Shown: piece by piece, positions 1 to 5,065 of the stretch
How the letters are laid out: every line of letters begins with the position of its first letter
Numbering within the stretch: position 1 is the stretch's first letter
IMG/VR virus record: IMGVR_UViG_3300010219_000015
Location: 1 to 5,065 of that record
DNA: 5,065 nt
From: a virus
Strand: one strand, 5' to 3'
Translations under genes and position numbers: made by a program
Notes under the pieces: model-generated
Told to the model about the DNA's origin: nothing
What the model saw: the letters and a program-made list of their open reading frames with translations, nothing else
Database searches by the model: none

Positions 1-55
1 ACCCATTCCTGAGATGCGCGGGCCGCAGGCCGGTTGAGCTGCGCTGCGGCTCGCG
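1..55. repeat. Terminal direct repeat, copy 1 (identical to 5011..5065); overlap from linearising a circular contig
   Basis: acccattcctgagatgcgcgggccgcaggccggttgagctgcgctgcggctcgcg was read at both ends of the window, base for base. Confidence 0.95.
36..52. other. GC-rich stem-loop (7-bp stem with one G-T pair, 3-nt loop) inside a GC-rich non-coding island at about 14..56; a second small ggcc-gca-ggcc hairpin lies at 21..31
   Basis: gagctgc (36..42) pairs with gcggctc (46..52). ggcc (21..24) pairs with ggcc (28..31). The region is non-coding and much more GC-rich than its surroundings. Confidence 0.5.
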
Positions 56-56
56 T

Positions 57-93
57 GGGGGCATATGACTCTCCTCGTTGTCTATATGCCCCC
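57..93. other. Perfect 10-bp inverted repeat with a 17-nt loop, 4 nt downstream of the VP3 stop on the coding strand; candidate terminator, complementary-strand origin or other structural element
   Basis: gggggcatat (57..66) is the exact reverse complement of atatgccccc (84..93). The loop is gactctcctcgttgtct. No T/U tract follows on the coding strand, so it is not a canonical intrinsic terminator. Confidence 0.6.
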
Positions 94-97
94 TGAC

Positions 98-559
98 TCA
101 GGCTTCCTTCGTCGGCTCCTGGACGATCACCCGAATAGGATCGGGTGTGATTTCTTTTTTCAGGAGTCCGATTTGTACCGCCTCCTCTAGGTTCTTCTCG
201 TTGTTTACGAACTCCCAGAGTTTCTGTGGATCGTGGTTGAACCTTTCGCGAATGTCCGCCGGTAGATCATTGAATCTTTCTTGTGCTACTCGTGCGGAGT
301 CTAGCATTTCCCTCAGGCTTCGTGCCTGTGTGAAATCTCCATAGTATCGTGGGTCTGTTACTCTCGGAAGATTTGCGTTTTCGTCCTCTAGTCCTAGCCT
401 TCGGGCAATTACGTTGATATCTACATCGTCCCTGAATTGCTGTTGTGCTCCCGTTGGTGATACGTCTTTTTCGTCTGGGATATTGTGTACTAAGCTGGCT
501 TCGCCTGCCTTGTCATCTTCCTTTGTGTCGTATTGGTCTCTGAATTTCGGTCTTGCCAT
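98..559 (-). CDS. VP3: Internal scaffolding protein VP3 (153 aa from the internal ATG)
   Basis: The tracked 177-aa ORF opens with GTG at 629..631. The ATG at 557..559 is preceded by GGAGG (565..569) with a 5-nt spacer and sits 2 nt after the VP2 stop (GGAGGTAAATATG). The motif FNDLPADIRERFNHDPQKLWEFV is what I recognise from gokushovirus VP3 (Chlamy_scaf-type) scaffolding proteins. The gene follows VP2 as expected. The stop is TGA at 98..100. Confidence 0.85.
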   Translation of the reverse strand: MARPKFRDQYDTKEDDKAGEASLVHNIPDEKDVSPTGAQQQFRDDVDINVIARRLGLEDENANLPRVTDPRYYGDFTQARSLREMLDSARVAQERFNDLPADIRERFNHDPQKLWEFVNNEKNLEEAVQIGLLKKEITPDPIRVIVQEPTKEA

Positions 560-561
560 AT

Positions 562-1233
562 TTACCTCCGGAGTGTGTGTGCTGCTGTTTTCGCGTCGTT
601 TAGGAAGGGTCTTACGTATTTTCCGTACCACGTATTTGCGATACGTGAGTCGTTTCTTAGTCCGGGTAATTCATATCCGGACGCTGTTGCGTTGTTCTGT
701 GCGTTCTTTAGGTCGGCTTCCATTTGCTGTATCATCATTCGGTATGTTTCGCCTCCGAATGCGTTTTCGCGTGATGCTTTTTTCAGTTCCTCCATTCTCA
801 TTTGCTGTGTTAGTGCCCACAGGCTTGTTTGTCTGCCTGTTTCGTTTGCTACTGATGCTCTTTGTGCGTCTGCCAGCTTTGCTTGATTTGCGATTAGGTC
901 GCGTTGTGCTATTCCATTTTGTAGTTCGTTATACATTTGTACGGCGCTTGCTGCGGCTGCCTGTGCTCCTCCCATTGGGTTTTGATATGTTGCTGTGTTT
1001 CCGCTTGGTGCTCCTGCGCCGTTTGCTACGGCCATTGCAGGGTTGAATCCTGCGGCTTTTAGGTCTGCTACTCGTCTTTGTACTTCTGTGTTGCTCATTC
1101 GTTCTTGAAAGCTTCTGTTTCGTGCTGCCTCTCGGGCGTTTGCTTCGTTGGCGCTCATTCCTCCGAATACGTTGAATGCGCCTCCTACTAGGTTTCCTAT
1201 GACGCCCGGTAGTGCGTCGGTTAGGATTCCCAT
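562..1233 (-). CDS. VP2: DNA pilot / minor capsid protein VP2 (223 aa)
   Basis: The ATG at 1231..1233 overlaps the VP1 stop (TAATG). A glycine-rich N-terminus is followed by SFQERMSNTEVQRRVADLKAAGFNPAMA, the conserved block I recognise from gokushovirus VP2 pilot proteins. The rest of the protein is Ala/Gly/Gln-rich. The stop is TAA at 562..564. Confidence 0.85.
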   Translation of the reverse strand: MGILTDALPGVIGNLVGGAFNVFGGMSANEANAREAARNRSFQERMSNTEVQRRVADLKAAGFNPAMAVANGAGAPSGNTATYQNPMGGAQAAAASAVQMYNELQNGIAQRDLIANQAKLADAQRASVANETGRQTSLWALTQQMRMEELKKASRENAFGGETYRMMIQQMEADLKNAQNNATASGYELPGLRNDSRIANTWYGKYVRPFLNDAKTAAHTLRR

Positions 1234-2870
1234 TAGAATCTCCCCAGTTGTGCGGGTGTGTTAAACATTGGCATGGGTCGCGTCGCTTCTACTTCGAAGA
1301 ATGCGTCCAGTAGTACGTTCATGTTTGCCTGTGCTGAGCTAAGCGCGCGTGTGATTGGTGTGCTCTGTTGGATGAACGCGCTGTTGAGTGACGGTGCCGC
1401 GCTGAATTGTTCTGCGAGGTGCCACTCGTCGATGTTGTTTGCGGTTGTGCTCTTGAAGTATCCCGTAATTCGGGACTGTTCGTACTTGTATTCGGCCCAT
1501 CGTTCCTGATATCCGAATACGGCTGTGTCGTTTGCGTTTCCTCGGACGAAGATTTCGTCCATTCTGATTGCCTGTTCGCCCAGATTTGCGAATGCGGGAT
1601 AGTAGTGATCTAGGCGTGTGCTGCGCGTCCACATACGGTGCATTCCCTGCTGGTACGTTACTTCTCCGTATGCGTTGCAGAGTCCGATAATAAATCCGTG
1701 TTCAGTTGCGTGGTAGCTGAATGAGTGGTTGTCGTTTGCGAGTGCGGTTGCGCCGAGCGATCCCAGTGGATTGTTGATTGTGTTGTCGCTGGATTTTCTG
1801 TCAACTGCGGTTTGCGGGATTGCCTGTGTTTGAATTGCCGTGGTTCCGCCTCCGATGTATTCCGGGCGTTGGAGTCGTACATCTTCTGGTGATACTCCGA
1901 AGTGCATTTGAAGTTGTTCGACGTACCTCGTACCGCCGCGCATATCGCGCTCCAGTAGTACTTGCGTTGCAAGTGCGGTGCGTAGTGCATTGATTGTTCC
2001 GCCTGTTCCGCTGAGGTCGGCGTAGATGTTTGGTACGAGTCCGGCCGTTGTTCCGCTTGCTCTGATTACGAGTTGGTTTACGTTGTTCGCCATGAAATAT
2101 CCGGGATATCCGGTGCTGCTGGTCCCGTCTTTTTCTATGGCGTTTGTGAATCCGCCTGTTACTGGTGCGATTGCGGCGTTGACTGCAAGTCCCTTTACTG
2201 GTGCTGTTCCGGCGAGGAATGCTACGTCGCTTCCCTTCTGTGGTGTCGGTAGTGCGCTCGTGAAATAGTCGTGTCTTTTGTTTCGCCGGAGTAGTACATA
2301 GTTTGTCGATCCGTCGATATCTCCGGTTGCTTCTACGACGCTGTTTTGTAGGTTTTGGTCTCTAAACCATTCGTTAAAGATTTTGTTGTATCCCCTGAGT
2401 GGTAGCGCGTTGATGTTTACACTATCTGTGCCCGTTACGCCTGTTCCGGGTGTTGGGAGTCCGAAGTAATCGAATATGCTGCATACTCCGAATCCGGCTG
2501 CGGCGTTGTTGCTGTTGATTGTCGGGATTGTATAGCTGATGCTGTCCGATGGGTTTGCTCGTTCTCCCATCATTTTTTTCCAGTTTGACCATACGATTCT
2601 GTTCGGTACGAAAAAAAAGAACGTGTCTAGGTATGCTCGGTCCATTAGTGGGAAGATTAGGCTACTTCCCAGTCGGGCGAATACCTGTACGCGTCCTCTG
2701 ATTGAATCTGCCGGTAGTACTTCTTTGCAGTAGAAGGGAATTAGGTAGTTGAAGTCGAATGTTGTCTTTAGTGTGTGTTCGTTTCTGAATGATGCCCGTG
2801 GAATGTCGCTTCGGTTCGTCATTGCGAACCGTGACGTGTTGATGCGGCCTACGCGTTGGTTGAGATCCAT
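1233..2870 (-). CDS. VP1: Major capsid protein VP1 (545 aa, Microviridae F-protein family)
   Basis: ATG at 2868..2870 with GAGGA 4 nt upstream. The N-terminal block TTFDFNYLIPFYCKEVLPADS...FARLGSSLIFPLMDRAYLDTFFFFVPNRIVWSNW matches the hallmark N-terminal motifs of microvirus capsid proteins. The length is typical of gokushovirus VP1. Confidence 0.95.
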   Translation of the reverse strand: MDLNQRVGRINTSRFAMTNRSDIPRASFRNEHTLKTTFDFNYLIPFYCKEVLPADSIRGRVQVFARLGSSLIFPLMDRAYLDTFFFFVPNRIVWSNWKKMMGERANPSDSISYTIPTINSNNAAAGFGVCSIFDYFGLPTPGTGVTGTDSVNINALPLRGYNKIFNEWFRDQNLQNSVVEATGDIDGSTNYVLLRRNKRHDYFTSALPTPQKGSDVAFLAGTAPVKGLAVNAAIAPVTGGFTNAIEKDGTSSTGYPGYFMANNVNQLVIRASGTTAGLVPNIYADLSGTGGTINALRTALATQVLLERDMRGGTRYVEQLQMHFGVSPEDVRLQRPEYIGGGTTAIQTQAIPQTAVDRKSSDNTINNPLGSLGATALANDNHSFSYHATEHGFIIGLCNAYGEVTYQQGMHRMWTRSTRLDHYYPAFANLGEQAIRMDEIFVRGNANDTAVFGYQERWAEYKYEQSRITGYFKSTTANNIDEWHLAEQFSAAPSLNSAFIQQSTPITRALSSAQANMNVLLDAFFEVEATRPMPMFNTPAQLGRF

Positions 2871-2877
2871 ACTTTCC

Positions 2878-3162
2878 TCACTTGGTTTTGTTTTTGTTCC
2901 AAATGATCTGCGCGACTATCTTGCCGATTTCTAGTGCGAGTAATACTCCGCTGGCGATTTTGTTCCGCCACTTCTTATCGCTGGCTCTGCGTTTCGGCTT
3001 CTTCGCGTGTGCTTGGATCGCGGTTTCGATCGTATGGTGTTGGATCGTCTCGTCTGAATTCTCCTCGTGGGTTGTTGATGAAGGCCCATTCTTCTCCGGT
3101 TGCGATGATTTGGATATCGGCCGGGTAGAGTTTTCCGGTTCGGTCATCCTGTGCTCCGACAT
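2878..3162 (-). CDS. Candidate overprinted ORF (94 aa from ATG 3160..3162; 89 aa from ATG 3145..3147), hypothetical, with a basic cluster and hydrophobic helix at the C-terminus
   Basis: It overlaps the 3' part of the VP5-like gene in another frame and then fills the otherwise unassigned gap 2878..2974. GGAG (3154..3157) lies 6 nt before the second ATG. The TGA stop is part of the VP1 ribosome-binding site (TGAGGAAAGTATG). In the non-overlapped 32 codons only 1 ends in T, matching the coding signature of this genome. The C-terminus reads AKKPKRRASDKKWRNK-IASGVLLALEIGKIVAQIIW-NKNKTK. Caveat: the T-poor strand generates spurious same-strand ORFs, and the N-terminal half looks low-complexity. 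Confidence 0.35.
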   Translation of the reverse strand: MSEHRMTEPENSTRPISKSSQPEKNGPSSTTHEENSDETIQHHTIETAIQAHAKKPKRRASDKKWRNKIASGVLLALEIGKIVAQIIWNKNKTK

Positions 3163-3412
3163 ATAGGAGTTCGTAGTCTTTCGGGTGTTTGCCCGGTGTG
3201 GTCTGTTTGTTGCCTAGTACATCTTCGAATTCTCGGATTGCGGCTTGGTGGCTGCGGTAGTCTAGTGCTGGTCCTAGCAGCATGTTTGCGACTTTATCGC
3301 GGATTTGGTATAGTCCTCTGAGGCTTAAGTGTCTATATTTTGCGAAGTCGTTCGGCTCGCTCGTGGTGTTGTCGGTGGATGATTTCGGCGGCTGCGAGTC
3401 GTTCGGGTTCAT
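2975..3412 (-). CDS. VP5: VP5-like (ORF5-type) non-structural protein, 145 aa as drawn; start uncertain
   Basis: The core LYQIRDKVANMLLGPALDYRSHQAAIREFEDVLGNKQTTPGKHPKDYELLYVGAQDDRTGKLYPADIQIIATGEEW matches the pattern I remember for gokushovirus VP5 (A-x-R-x-F ... hP-x-D[FY]-x-L ... G-x-x-D-x-x-TG). It lies between VP4 and VP1 as in gokushoviruses. The only in-frame ATG upstream of the conserved core is at 3410..3412, which is 80 nt inside VP4 and has no obvious SD. Confidence 0.65.
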   Translation of the reverse strand: MNPNDSQPPKSSTDNTTSEPNDFAKYRHLSLRGLYQIRDKVANMLLGPALDYRSHQAAIREFEDVLGNKQTTPGKHPKDYELLYVGAQDDRTGKLYPADIQIIATGEEWAFINNPRGEFRRDDPTPYDRNRDPSTREEAETQSQR

Positions 3413-4247
3413 TTTTGTCTGTTGGCTTGAGTGACTGTTTGTACTTTCGGTGGTCGATGTTCTCGGCTAGCTGTGGTTCGGTCTTTTTGAGGTTGCGTAG
3501 GTATGTTCTGGGTATCTTGGTTTTCCTCCCGTTTAGGGTGACTAGGAATCCGTCTGTGAGGTCTGTTTTGTTCTCTTTTAGCCATCGTAGGCCGATGGCG
3601 GGTCGTCGGCTCATTCGTGCGAACGGTGGTGGTCTGTCGAACCATTCGCCGTTCTCGTCTATATATCCGTCGCCTTTTGTCCATCCCGCGCCCTTTAGCG
3701 CGTATTTTGCGATGTACGTTCCTGCTGCTGGTGTGAAGTTTCCTAGGTCTGTGATGCCTAGACCCCAGAGTTTGTGAAGTGTTTCGCTGGTATATCTTGG
3801 TAGTTCGTCGGTTCCTCCGATGCGTTGTTTGTCTTTAAAGTCGCAATTGAATAGGACGGCGTGATAGTGTGGTCGGTGTGTGTTGTGTGTTCCGTATTCT
3901 CCACAGGCGAAATAACTGAGGTTTTGCGTGTGGTCAGTGATGATGGTATCCACATCTCTAACTGTTGCGTTTCGGATTCTTTTGAGGAAGTTTCTGAGGT
4001 GTTCTGGTACAAGGTGTCCTCCTCGTGGTACGTTAGCGTCGTCGTATGTTAGCGTTACGAATATGTTGTACGGTGTTCTTCGCGCTTCGTGGGAACATCT
4101 GTGTCCCCATTCTGTGGCGCGGTCGGTACGGCATCCAATACATTTCCCGCATGGGAGTTGTAGGTTGGTTAGTCCTAGTTGTGGTTTGATGATGAGCTGT
4201 TTTCCGGGTGCCTCTTGGTATGCTGGTATTGGGTGGTAGCATGCCAC
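3333..4247 (-). CDS. VP4: Replication initiation protein VP4 (304 aa, HUH rolling-circle endonuclease), GTG start
   Basis: The start codon is GTG (plus strand cac at 4245..4247), bounded by an in-frame TAA two codons upstream (4251..4253), with GGAGG 9 nt upstream. Motifs verified at nucleotide level: CGKCIGC (4131..4151), FVTLTY (4044..4061), the HUH motif RPHYHAVLF (HYH at 3861..3869), and the double catalytic tyrosine YIAKY (3702..3716). The last resembles the Y-x-x-K-Y of phiX174 protein A. Confidence 0.95.
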   Translation of the reverse strand: MACYHPIPAYQEAPGKQLIIKPQLGLTNLQLPCGKCIGCRTDRATEWGHRCSHEARRTPYNIFVTLTYDDANVPRGGHLVPEHLRNFLKRIRNATVRDVDTIITDHTQNLSYFACGEYGTHNTHRPHYHAVLFNCDFKDKQRIGGTDELPRYTSETLHKLWGLGITDLGNFTPAAGTYIAKYALKGAGWTKGDGYIDENGEWFDRPPPFARMSRRPAIGLRWLKENKTDLTDGFLVTLNGRKTKIPRTYLRNLKKTEPQLAENIDHRKYKQSLKPTDKNEPERLAAAEIIHRQHHERAERLRKI

Positions 4248-4250
4248 TTG

Positions 4251-4361
4251 TTATAGCCTCCATCCTCCGCGCATTACTCGGACGTTGAATGCGTGGGTTT
4301 TCTGGCTGTTGCGGTTGAAGCTGTTTGCGCTCTTGCGGCGGTTGACGTTGCGGCGCTGCAT
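4251..4361 (-). CDS. Small arginine-rich DNA-binding/packaging peptide, J-protein / gokushovirus ORF8-like (36 aa)
   Basis: Hand translation gives ATG (4359..4361) ... TAA (4251..4253) = MQRRNVNRRKSANSFNRNSQKTHAFNVRVMRGGWRL. It has 10 Arg/Lys, no acidic residue, and a C-terminal RGGxRL-type ending that I recall from small basic gokushovirus peptides. No codon ends in T (0/36). A G-rich stretch (GGGGGA) lies 7 nt upstream. Its last codons carry the VP4 Shine-Dalgarno, and its stop is 3 nt before the VP4 GTG (TAACAAGTG). It is missing from the supplied track only because of its length. Confidence 0.7.
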   Translation of the reverse strand: MQRRNVNRRKSANSFNRNSQKTHAFNVRVMRGGWRL

Positions 4362-4404
4362 TTGTTGTTCCCCCGGGTTTTTTGAAAATTTTTTGGACGG
4401 ATGT

Positions 4405-4438
4405 GGAAAAGTCCCCGTTTTAGGACGGGTTCTTTTCC
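4405..4438. other. Intergenic stem-loop (7 bp + 2x2 internal loop + 5 bp, 6-nt loop) between ORF64 and the J-like gene
   Basis: ggaaaag (4405..4411) pairs with cttttcc (4432..4438), and cccgt (4414..4418) pairs with acggg (4425..4429). The loop is tttagg. It lies 15 nt after the ORF64 stop on the coding strand. No U tract follows directly. Confidence 0.55.
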
Positions 4439-4453
4439 GGTTGATGGTTTGTG

Positions 4454-4648
4454 TTAGTGCTGGAGTGCGGTGTTGAGGTATTCGATTGCGTCTGTTACGA
4501 AGTCGAATGCGAGTTTGAGATACTTCGCTTCCTCGGTGTCCGGCTTCGCTTCTGCGTGTAGCTTCGTGATTTCTATTCGTGCCTGTTGCATCTTGTAGCG
4601 CGCCTCTTTGGTGCGCGTGTCTGTGTCGATCTGCGCGGTCTGTCGCAT
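4454..4648 (-). CDS. Hypothetical small helical protein (ORF64, 64 aa), orphan
   Basis: The ATG at 4646..4648 is 2 nt after the ORF68 stop, with GAGGA inside the last ORF68 codons (GAGGAAGTAAACATG). Only 1 of 64 codons ends in T. The sequence is charged and amphipathic (…ARIEITKLHAEAKPDTEEAKYLKLAFDFVTDAIEYLNTALQH). I recognise no family. Confidence 0.6.
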   Translation of the reverse strand: MRQTAQIDTDTRTKEARYKMQQARIEITKLHAEAKPDTEEAKYLKLAFDFVTDAIEYLNTALQH

Positions 4649-4650
4649 GT

Positions 4651-4857
4651 TTACTTCCTCGTGTTGTTGGCCTTGGCGGCGTCGATCTGTTCGCGCTTCT
4701 GTGCGCTCTCGTCGTCGGTCTGTTTCTTCAGGGCCTTTACGGCTTCGATCATTTCTTCCGTGCTGGCGACTGCTCCGCGTTGCCGCGCGAGCTTGGTCTC
4801 GAGGTCGCGAATGGTCCGGTCAAAGTGCATGCTCGTGACGTTTGTCGTGGCGCTCAT
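4651..4857 (-). CDS. Hypothetical small coiled-coil-like protein (ORF68, 68 aa), orphan
   Basis: The tracked 121-aa ORF is trimmed to the internal ATG at 4855..4857, which has a strong AGGAGG (4864..4869) 6 nt upstream. The discarded N-terminal 53 codons are low-complexity T/H/R/N-rich. Only 2 of 68 codons end in T. Heptad-like hydrophobic spacing is seen in FDRTIRDLETKLARQRGAVASTEEMIEAVKALKKQ. I recognise no family. Confidence 0.65.
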   Translation of the reverse strand: MSATTNVTSMHFDRTIRDLETKLARQRGAVASTEEMIEAVKALKKQTDDESAQKREQIDAAKANNTRK

Positions 4858-4876
4858 GGTATTCCTCCTGTGGTTG

Positions 4877-4892
4877 CGAGCCCTTTTGCTCG
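4877..4892 (-). other. Short stem-loop (5 bp plus 2 possible G-T pairs, 6-nt loop) in the putative 5' leader of ORF68
   Basis: cgagc (4877..4881) pairs with gctcg (4888..4892). It lies between the candidate promoter and the ORF68 SD. Confidence 0.3.
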
Positions 4893-4900
4893 TGTCTGTA

Positions 4901-4921
4901 TCTATAGCAGGAGTCGTGCCA
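4901..4921 (-). promoter_or_regulatory. Candidate promoter for the ORF68-led transcript: a sigma-54-like -24/-12 element overlapping an extended -10-like TGCTATAGA
   Basis: The minus strand 4921..4906 reads TGGCACGACTCCTGCT, against the sigma-54 consensus TGGCACG-N4-TTGCW. The GG and GC are at the exact consensus spacing, with one mismatch (C for the first T of TTGC). The same bases give TG-n-TATAGA (4909..4901), an extended -10-like sigma-70 element with a poor -35. It lies about 45-65 nt upstream of the ORF68 ATG, in the only large non-coding region. Confidence 0.3.
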
Positions 4922-5010
4922 TGAGTTGCGTTTGTGTGTTGCGGTCTAACGCTGGCACGTTTCTTGGGTTTGTGGCTTGTGTGCCACATTGTGTTGCGTG
5001 TGTGTGCTAC

Positions 5011-5065
5011 ACCCATTCCTGAGATGCGCGGGCCGCAGGCCGGTTGAGCTGCGCTGCGGCTCGCG
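5011..5065. repeat. Terminal direct repeat, copy 2 (identical to 1..55)
   Basis: Same 55-mer as 1..55. Confidence 0.95.

Follow-up and report, generated by a model that had tools for sequence, protein, structure and literature searches.

The lysis protein E of phage phiX174, a Bullavirinae amurin that inhibits MraY, is encoded wholly inside gene D and has its transmembrane domain at the N-terminus, where a conserved proline is essential; the C-terminal part of E is dispensable, and its action depends on the host protein SlyD. The same phage overprints K, a small hydrophobic non-structural protein, at the junction of the replication gene A with gene C, the latter being the analogue of VP5; K is non-essential and is not a lysis protein. 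Gokushoviruses are among the most abundant single-stranded DNA phages. In this study, we analyzed 5,065 nucleotides (nt) of DNA, positions 1 to 5,065 of the IMG/VR record IMGVR_UViG_3300010219_000015 and hereafter the window, which represents the complete genome of a gokushovirus-type microvirus with all of its genes on the minus strand. Our subject is an open reading frame (ORF) that is overprinted on the 3' part of VP5 and continues to the beginning of the major capsid gene VP1, here called the junction ORF. An original prediction, made from the letters of the window, had proposed it as a candidate membrane or lysis gene, noting that gokushoviruses have no recognizable E homologue. The literature bears this out, as no lysis gene and no homologue of phiX174 E are recognized in the gokushoviruses (PMC7062461), and overprinted genes outside the Bullavirinae were left out of large microvirus surveys (PMC9239249). 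Owing to these two circumstances, a lysis or membrane role is a reasonable hypothesis for such an ORF. Overprinted genes in other small microviruses have been found through conservation combined with microdiversity (PMC9865509).

The junction ORF is very probably a real gene. As the original prediction held, it is a genuine coding frame rather than an accident of composition, being conserved in a sister lineage, represented by the 5,573-nt ENA contig L011, and showing synonymous polymorphism there, including in the part that overlaps VP5. What is new here is an overprinted small protein of a putatively membrane-active type that belongs to a new sequence family and occupies a new position, in a group of phages where none was known. 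Judging from its sequence, we lean slightly toward a product that acts at the membrane, and we put forward its identity as the lysis effector tentatively, at somewhat less than even confidence. Nevertheless, it is the best candidate that the gokushoviruses offer for a lysis or membrane protein.

The junction ORF and its conservation

The window carries a direct terminal repeat of 55 nt (1-55 and 5011-5065), and therefore constitutes a complete circle of 5,010 nt. As originally described, a second minus-strand frame runs through the 3' part of VP5 and the 104-nt gap between the VP5 stop and the VP1 ATG (2871..2974). The ORF, its parts and its two neighbors are as follows.

2878..3162, minus strand: the whole overprinted ORF, 94 codons plus TGA, in the +1 frame relative to VP5
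2878..3147, minus strand: likeliest translated form, 89 amino acids from the second ATG (M6), based on the GGAG 6 nt upstream and on the gene caller
3154..3157, minus strand: Shine-Dalgarno-like GGAG that presumably serves ATG 3147
2975..3162, minus strand: the VP5-overlapping part, ORF codons 1-62 lying on VP5 codons 84-145; hydrophilic, acidic and predicted to be disordered
2959..3003, minus strand: basic cluster KKPKRRASDKKWRNK directly before the helix, with 9 basic and 1 acidic residues in 15 (net +8)
2899..2958, minus strand: hydrophobic amphipathic helix IASGVLLALEIGKIVAQIIW, encoded wholly within the VP5-VP1 gap
2881..2898, minus strand: basic C-terminal tail NKNKTK, whose counterpart in L011 is KKKCKL
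2875..2880, minus strand: ORF stop TGA (2880-2878) overlapping the VP1 Shine-Dalgarno sequence GAGGA (2879-2875), 8 nt before the VP1 ATG
2975..3412, minus strand: VP5, the overprinted gene, with Pfam Phage_ORF5 over residues 34-106
1233..2870, minus strand: VP1, the major capsid gene and downstream neighbor of the ORF (Pfam/PHROG scan)

The sequence statements of the original description all proved correct, including the GGAG-N6-ATG arrangement before the second methionine (GGAG 3157-3154, ATG 3147-3145), the position of the TGA within the VP1 ribosome-binding site, and a tail that reads KKWRNK-IASGVLLALEIGKIVAQIIW-NKNKTK with positive charges on both flanks of the helix. A GGAG or GAGG site is common to most of the real genes of this genome, VP5 being the exception. 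Since such a site stands before ATG 3147 and none before the first ATG of the ORF (3162), initiation at the internal ATG 3147 is most likely, which would give a protein of 89 amino acids. The source's gene caller predicted exactly this product (P0001) and did not call VP5. Termination-reinitiation coupling of the ORF to VP1 translation is possible, given how close the ORF stop lies to the VP1 ATG. About 60% of the overlap falls on the lineage-specific C-terminal tail of VP5, past the Pfam domain. This tail extends about 39 residues beyond the domain and exceeds that of the aligned relatives by about 13-27 residues.

The coding strand of the window contains only 13.5% T, whose frequency in the known genes is highest at codon position 2 (17-26%) and lowest at position 3 (4-12%). 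The claim that the gap carries this signature in exactly the frame of the ORF holds, as the counts of T at codon positions 1, 2 and 3 of the gap are 4, 10 and 1 in the ORF frame as opposed to 1, 4 and 10 when the VP5 frame is extended beyond its stop, and the third frame contains two stops. The original caveat that a T-poor strand inflates ORF lengths is partly right. Stops in the +1 frames of the known genes occur once per 19-21 codons, and upon resampling of synonymous VP5 codons the overlap stays open in 16% of the trials for the window (P = 0.16) and in 1.2% for L011 (P = 0.012).

Two other uses of the gap as coding sequence were considered and rejected. One is an Arg-rich peptide encoded by the VP5 frame beyond its stop. 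L011 offers no start for this peptide, T stands at the end of 10 of its 34 codons, and the single-nucleotide polymorphisms (SNPs) that it takes are non-synonymous; it is a by-product of Ile-Ala codons. The third frame was discarded as a gene on account of its stops.

L011 is the closest relative in a large protein collection, with a VP1 that is 64-65% identical to that of the window; further relatives from this collection reach 56-62%. The window and L011 are sisters in a neighbor-joining tree of VP1. The genome is otherwise isolated: elsewhere, the best VP1 identity was 50% in IMG/VR and 45% in JGI metagenome contigs, and a VP1 scan of GTDB gave a best full-length match of 49%, with only short fragments reaching 55%. 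Because the full-length matches in GTDB do not exceed 49%, we draw no inference about the host from them.

The VP5-VP1 gap of L011 measures 94 nt, and it is likewise traversed by an ORF in the +1 frame of VP5, with 81 codons at 1737-1982. This ORF ends in ...PTKIALAIIAAIEVAKVIADAIKKKCKL. Its helix, IALAIIAAIEVAKVIADAIK, aligns with that of the window with conserved A, E, K, A and I residues, and the motif RPRRK lies upstream. In the window and in L011 alike, the helix sets in at the stop codon of VP5, and the start ATGs of the two ORFs are at most about 5 codons apart in the VP5 alignment. An ungapped alignment of the 27-residue tails has a BLOSUM62 score of 50 with 10 of 27 residues identical, and among 100,000 shuffles that preserved composition not one scored as high. 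Conserved positions in the tail are K68, I69, A70, A76, E78, K81, A84, I87, K90 and K92, and a (G/A)xxx(G/A) repeat is conserved at 72/76/80/84. The nucleotide differences between the two tails number 14, 9 and 17 at codon positions 1, 2 and 3 and amount mainly to I/V/L/A exchanges. As position 2 is the most conserved and exchanges among I, V and L dominate, the conservation is at the protein level, and the substitution pattern fits selection on a hydrophobic peptide rather than on a nucleic-acid element.

Polymorphism within the L011 population points in the same direction and shows purifying selection on the ORF. This set comprises L011 and 11 further assemblies (L014-L024), that is, n = 12, with 94 segregating sites over 4,095 nt. 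The original prediction had suggested looking for conservation of the frame and for suppression of synonymous change in the 3' end of VP5, and both are seen here. The ORF is intact in 12 of 12 genomes with an invariant ATG, and third-position synonymous SNPs in VP5 number 5 in 154 non-overlapped nt as compared with 1 in 167 overlapped nt. Eight SNPs fall in the ORF, of which six are synonymous and two non-synonymous in its frame, whereas among the 86 SNPs in the +1 frames of known genes (VP1, VP2, VP3, VP4 and VP5 outside the overlap) 9 are synonymous and 77 are non-synonymous (Fisher P = 1.4e-4). Each of the three SNPs in the gap falls at the third position of an ORF codon and leaves the encoded residue unchanged, and each is non-synonymous when read in either of the other frames. 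Within the overlap, three of five are synonymous in the ORF frame (P about 0.01). Two of the overlap SNPs are AGA/CGA exchanges, synonymous both in VP5 (position 1) and in the ORF (position 3), and such doubly synonymous changes are the rare class of mutation expected under dual coding.

The protein product divides into four parts, the last of which is the short basic tail. Residues 1-52 carry a net charge of -5, are rich in S, T, P and E, and receive low AlphaFold confidence. The basic cluster occupies residues 54-68, and the helix, at residues 69-88, is the sole hydrophobic segment of the product and contains no proline; in total there are 17 K and R residues versus 11 D and E residues. An AlphaFold2 prediction run on the single sequence gives one continuous helix at residues 60-92 (predicted local distance difference test score, pLDDT, 85-93). 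The helix was originally called mostly hydrophobic, and on the Kyte-Doolittle scale this stands, with a mean of 1.85 over 19 residues (2.15 in L011). On the Hessa scale, however, the plain sum, taken without position dependence, is about +5 kcal/mol for both the window and L011 because of the conserved E78, K81 and Q/D85. A helical wheel places the polar residues S71, E78, K81, Q/D85 and N89 within an arc of 80 degrees. Owing to the Hessa sum, the helix is better regarded as amphipathic or marginally transmembrane than as a classical anchor. A predicted amphipathic helix with basic residues on both sides suits binding to the membrane surface followed by oligomeric insertion, or docking to a membrane protein, better than it suits a tail anchor.

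Searches with the ORF returned little beyond the ORF itself. No Pfam or PHROG family matched its product at E<=0.1, save two sub-threshold unrelated families. A DNA search of 50,697 phage records in near and distant modes gave no match to the window, and neither did tblastn of the ORF against phage genomes. A word-indexed search of 5.8 billion proteins recovered only the window's own 89-residue call, and an exhaustive phmmer search of 1.8 billion representatives found the ORF itself and a spurious repetitive protein of 700 amino acids (P0122). With VP5 as the query, nothing was found in IMG/VR or the protein database, and nothing came from searching IMG/VR with a back-translated degenerate pattern of the helix and with the alignment of the two ORFs. 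A profile of the two tails run against six-frame translations of 193 loci (1.09 Mb) detected the L011 population only, and a sequence search of the Protein Data Bank with the ORF product gave nothing meaningful.

Helix ORFs inside VP4 of T-poor relatives

The junction gene is absent from eight relatives whose VP1 is 58-62% identical to that of the window (L012, L013, L025, L026, L027, L028, L113 and L114), and in five of these eight VP5 abuts VP1. The original prediction had named relatives without the gap as evidence against the proposal. We do not count them as a refutation, because the same relatives carry a helix gene elsewhere. Scanning of coding-strand ORFs for hydrophobic windows of 19 residues revealed in all eight an ORF of 76-145 amino acids in the +1 frame of the replication initiator gene VP4, starting near VP4 codon 57-80. 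These ORFs encode an Ala/Ile/Leu-rich helix, then basic residues and then a long S/T/P/E-rich tail. Their positions, all obtained by the hydrophobic-window scan, are as follows.

L012:636-932, plus strand: VP4-embedded ORF
L013:1998-2309, plus strand: VP4-embedded ORF
L025:3688-4017, plus strand: VP4-embedded ORF
L026:3738-3968, plus strand: VP4-embedded ORF
L027:333-737, plus strand: VP4-embedded ORF
L028:8-295, plus strand: VP4-embedded ORF
L113:1201-1638, plus strand: VP4-embedded ORF
L114:3892-4236, plus strand: VP4-embedded ORF

When VP4 codons were permuted synonymously, the hydrophobic stretch was reproduced in 0 of 2,000 trials in each of the four genomes tested (P<0.0005). As the shuffles never reproduce the hydrophobicity, the codon choice of VP4 in these relatives is evidently shaped to encode a hydrophobic helix in the second frame, and the VP4-embedded ORF looks like an undescribed conserved overlapping gene. 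No published description of it or of the junction gene was found in the papers searched. The helices of these ORFs are more plainly hydrophobic than that of the window, their Hessa sums falling as low as +0.4. In the window and L011, on the other hand, the +1 frame of VP4 contains no hydrophobic helix (maximum Kyte-Doolittle 0.09 and -0.62, within the shuffled range), and the scan found no small hydrophobic ORF in either genome apart from the junction ORF.

On this distribution, the lineage of the window and L011 would have lost the VP4-embedded helix ORF and gained the junction gene, and the function appears to have moved position in their common ancestor. The complementary distribution represents one phylogenetic switch and not several independent ones. 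It can be argued within the T-poor clade only, since most of the 80 IMG/VR gokushoviruses that were surveyed for hydrophobic ORFs in alternative frames have T-rich genomes, in which spurious hydrophobic ORFs abound. Within the clade, the presence of a different overprinted helix ORF in VP4 of the relatives strengthens the hypothesis of a lysis or membrane function.

The presence and position of small hydrophobic genes are variable even among these phages. L113 has an additional intergenic ORF of 33 amino acids between VP3 and VP4 (689-790, plus strand), MTRILINAILSIVFVGLLVLFILWAVSVYQLTT, which is strongly hydrophobic, and another T-poor genome, L029, has no small hydrophobic ORF at all.

Possible functions and the rest of the genome

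The reading that we favor is a lineage-specific overprinted membrane-active protein, probably for lysis and built like MS2 L rather than phiX174 E; taken as a whole, we hold it at even confidence. Ribosomes would initiate at a low level at the internal ATG 3147, which lies within VP5 in its +1 frame, and translation would proceed through the poorly conserved C-terminal tail of VP5 into the gap, which would encode the functional end of the protein. The 89-residue protein would have a disordered acidic N-terminal part, and its poly-basic flanks may pull the C-terminal helix toward the inner membrane, which is anionic. There, the helix could embed and self-associate via its small-residue and polar faces, or it could bind a host membrane enzyme that makes cell-wall precursors, and in this way it would impair the envelope or wall synthesis. 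Failure of the envelope late in infection would then release the progeny. This would be a single-gene lysis or lysis-assisting role with the architecture of MS2 L, which the relatives may fill by their VP4-embedded ORF. A bolder version of this reading, which we regard as doubtful, is that the T-poor gokushovirus clade has a position-changing single-gene lysis function that is mostly embedded in VP4 and was re-invented at the VP5-VP1 junction of the window and L011 by duplication of the VP5 3' end. If true, the missing gokushovirus lysis genes would be identified and the birth of one of them documented.

A number of observations weigh against a membrane-active lysis protein. The openness of the ORF in the window is by itself weak evidence, the start codon of the L011 homologue has no Shine-Dalgarno site, and the conservation comes from two lineages only and amounts to one evolutionary event. 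The polymorphism counts are small and derive from the L011 lineage only, although all of them point one way. The helix is only marginally hydrophobic with a conserved E and K at its center, and the basic residues on both of its flanks are ill-suited to a simple membrane-spanning tail anchor. A homologue of known function was found in none of the databases searched, and the lack of any such ORF in L029 indicates that a gene of this kind is not universal. The L011 helix, moreover, is possibly derived from VP5, so that a role in protein-protein contacts instead of at the membrane is conceivable. What stands of the original proposal of a candidate membrane or lysis gene is the overprinted coding frame, with a lysis or membrane role as a reasonable hypothesis; insertion of the helix into the membrane is uncertain in view of the conserved E and K and the basic flanks.

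Foremost among the alternatives is a real but non-lytic accessory membrane protein, for example one that tunes burst size as phiX174 K does, excludes superinfection, or tethers replication or assembly to the membrane; we consider this unlikely. The evidence for coding and selection is identical for this and for the lysis reading, and the weakly hydrophobic, amphipathic helix counts in its favor. K itself is likewise small, hydrophobic and overprinted at a gene junction, and L029 manages without any ORF of this kind. Yet the genome offers no other candidate for a lysis function, and no peptidase or endolysin domain was found in any window ORF scanned against Pfam and PHROG. In addition, every other T-poor relative examined keeps a small hydrophobic-helix ORF, suggesting an important role. 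Should the protein turn out to be non-lytic, the locus would still be a clear case of a young overlapping gene in which selection on both frames can be measured.

The possible derivation from VP5 raises a second alternative, a soluble protein-protein module that arose from the VP5 C-terminal helix as an amphipathic or coiled-coil element and that functions in assembly or in VP5-related control of replication or packaging. The 94-nt gap of L011 aligns with the last 94 nt of VP5 (L011:1810-1997) with 42 of 94 positions identical on the exact diagonal, as compared with a shuffle mean of 27.4, and this identity was reached by 10 of 20,000 shuffles. The core of the alignment, 36 nt with 24 identities, was reached by 0 of 300. 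As the offset of the duplication is 1 modulo 3, the +1 ORF reads the copy in the original codon phase, giving the matched peptides SGSQILARLAEAKAEADRIRNR (VP5) and IALAIIAAIEVAKVIADAIKKK (ORF), with LAEAKAEADRI facing IEVAKVIADAI. The alignment suggests that the L011 gap is an out-of-frame tandem duplicate of the VP5 3' end, whose amphipathic helix was later made hydrophobic. The matching codon phases speak for a soluble module, as do the Ala-rich face of the helix and its conserved stripe of E, K and (Q,D). However, no trace of duplication between the gap and the VP5 3' end is present in the window, and the polar face of the VP5 helix has been replaced by I, V and A, which is a shift toward hydrophobicity. 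The flanking poly-basic patches are typical of binding to a membrane surface, and the analogous ORFs of the relatives are more plainly hydrophobic still. We therefore regard a soluble module as quite unlikely.

It is also conceivable, at low probability, that the ORF has no function as a protein and is open merely through the T-poor strand, the gap serving a nucleic-acid role or the peptide serving to couple VP1 translation. Long alternative-frame ORFs are common on this coding strand, the openness of the window ORF is matched in 16% of the codon resamplings, and the ORF stop overlaps the ribosome-binding site of VP1. Such a reading has difficulty with conservation at the amino-acid level through conservative substitutions, with SNPs that are synonymous in the ORF frame only, and with the openness of the ORF in L011. 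RNA structure and a terminator were both rejected as the role of the gap, since its fold is not significant (z = -1.3 in the window and +0.7 in L011) and no terminator or coding-strand promoter was found in it.

Programmed +1 ribosomal frameshifting, by which the helix would be appended to VP5 to give a long isoform, is about as improbable. It would fit that in both lineages the frame of the helix lies +1 to VP5 and sets in at the stop codon of VP5, that the gap has no canonical start, and that the ATG of L011 lacks a Shine-Dalgarno site. Few +1 frameshift sites are known in bacteria, and the stop contexts here, CGA-TAA-G in the window and AAC-TAA-A in L011, do not look slippery by eye and would re-pair poorly after a +1 shift. 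Against it also stand an ATG that occupies almost the same place in VP5 in the two lineages and is invariant in the 12 L011-type genomes, and the good Shine-Dalgarno site before M6 of the window.

VP8 and J are very basic short peptides (isoelectric point about 12-13) that bind DNA and have C-terminal aromatic or hydrophobic residues buried in VP1 (PMC11281519). Despite a basic cluster followed by a hydrophobic segment that loosely recalls them, the junction ORF is almost certainly not the packaging peptide of this genome, since a separate VP8 is present at 4251-4361 and the ORF has an acidic N-terminal half, ends in NKNKTK and lacks both their very high basicity and a C-terminal aromatic residue.

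VP8 had not been listed previously, and it joins the other genes of the window as follows.

4251..4361, minus strand: VP8, a J-like DNA-binding peptide of 36 amino acids ending in RGGWRL, recognized by its homologues in relatives
3333-4247, minus strand: VP4, replication initiator (Pfam/PHROG scan and ORF list)
562-1233, minus strand: VP2, pilot protein (ORF list and Pfam/PHROG scan)
98-631, minus strand: VP3, scaffold (ORF list and Pfam/PHROG scan)

The VP8 peptide reads MQRRNVNRRKSANSFNRNSQKTHAFNVRVMRGGWRL, and homologues that also end in RGGWRL lie 5' of VP4 in L011 (528-635), L012 (183-293) and L013 (1543-1662). VP5 of the window has no start codon at the position used by its relatives, directly before the LYQ motif (window 3333-3412). 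The sole upstream ATG is at 3412; it overlaps the 3' end of VP4 by 80 nt, has no Shine-Dalgarno site and puts 28 extra residues before the start position of the relatives. For VP3, ATG 559 with CGGAGG before it is the probable start, and not GTG 631 of the longest listed ORF; the Pfam scaffold domain of VP3 starts well downstream of both. For VP1, the source's gene caller chose Met17 (529 amino acids; region 2822-2870, minus strand). The form of 545 amino acids is likelier, as most relatives keep the N-terminal MDLNQR...RF and a Shine-Dalgarno site precedes ATG 2870. Two ORFs between VP3 and VP8, at 4454-4648 (64 amino acids) and 4651-5016 (121 amino acids), both on the minus strand, match no family, and the 64-residue one has a good Shine-Dalgarno site. 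The equivalent variable region of L011 contains three small ORFs that look non-homologous to them.

Comparison with known systems

The junction ORF and phiX174 E are both small overprinted microvirus proteins with one hydrophobic helix, for which a lysis role is known in the latter and presumed in the former. The likeness does not go further, and the term amurin-like, used originally in the sense of E, is not supported. The junction product has no N-terminal transmembrane domain and no proline-containing helix; its helix is C-terminal and proline-free. Instead of lying wholly within another gene, the ORF overlaps VP5 and then uses a unique sequence. It has no match in Pfam or PHROG, and neither these nor protein databases and phage genomes revealed any sequence or profile similarity to E. 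K differs in location, as it sits at the A/C junction whereas the ORF sits at the junction of the C analogue and the capsid gene, and there is no similarity between the two.

The VP4-embedded ORFs of the same clade are closer in kind. They too are +1 overprints on a T-poor coding strand, with one helix beside basic residues and a disordered S/T/P/E-rich part. They are, however, embedded in the replication gene, their helix is N-terminal rather than C-terminal, and no sequence similarity to the window ORF is detectable.

The lysis protein L of phage MS2 provides the nearest architectural parallel. It belongs to an RNA and not a DNA virus, and it has no sequence similarity to the junction product. 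Neither IASGVLLALEIGKIVAQIIW nor the L011 helix contains the Leu-Ser dipeptide that is conserved in the hydrophobic domain of L-like proteins, the ORF helix is less hydrophobic than that of L and has a conserved E and K, and the far N-terminal part of the ORF product is acidic. In organization, on the other hand, both are small (about 75-90 amino acids) and are encoded by a +1 overprint across the junction of two essential genes, including the intergenic gap. In L, a hydrophilic basic part precedes a C-terminal hydrophobic helix (PMC10688784); the junction product matches this order of domains, with a basic patch before its helix, but the helix is only marginally hydrophobic (Hessa sum about +5). 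Low-level expression is probable.

With the junction ORF as a concrete, clonable candidate of 89 amino acids and with a wider class of candidates inside VP4, the question of gokushovirus lysis becomes directly testable, and any new single-gene lysis protein has practical interest as a 'protein antibiotic'. In leviviruses, the place in the genome where lysis genes emerge de novo varies (PMC7693330), and the alternative positions within VP4 and at the VP5-VP1 junction form a parallel to this. This suggests that small DNA phages, like the RNA leviviruses, may repeatedly invent short membrane-active proteins at different positions in their genomes.

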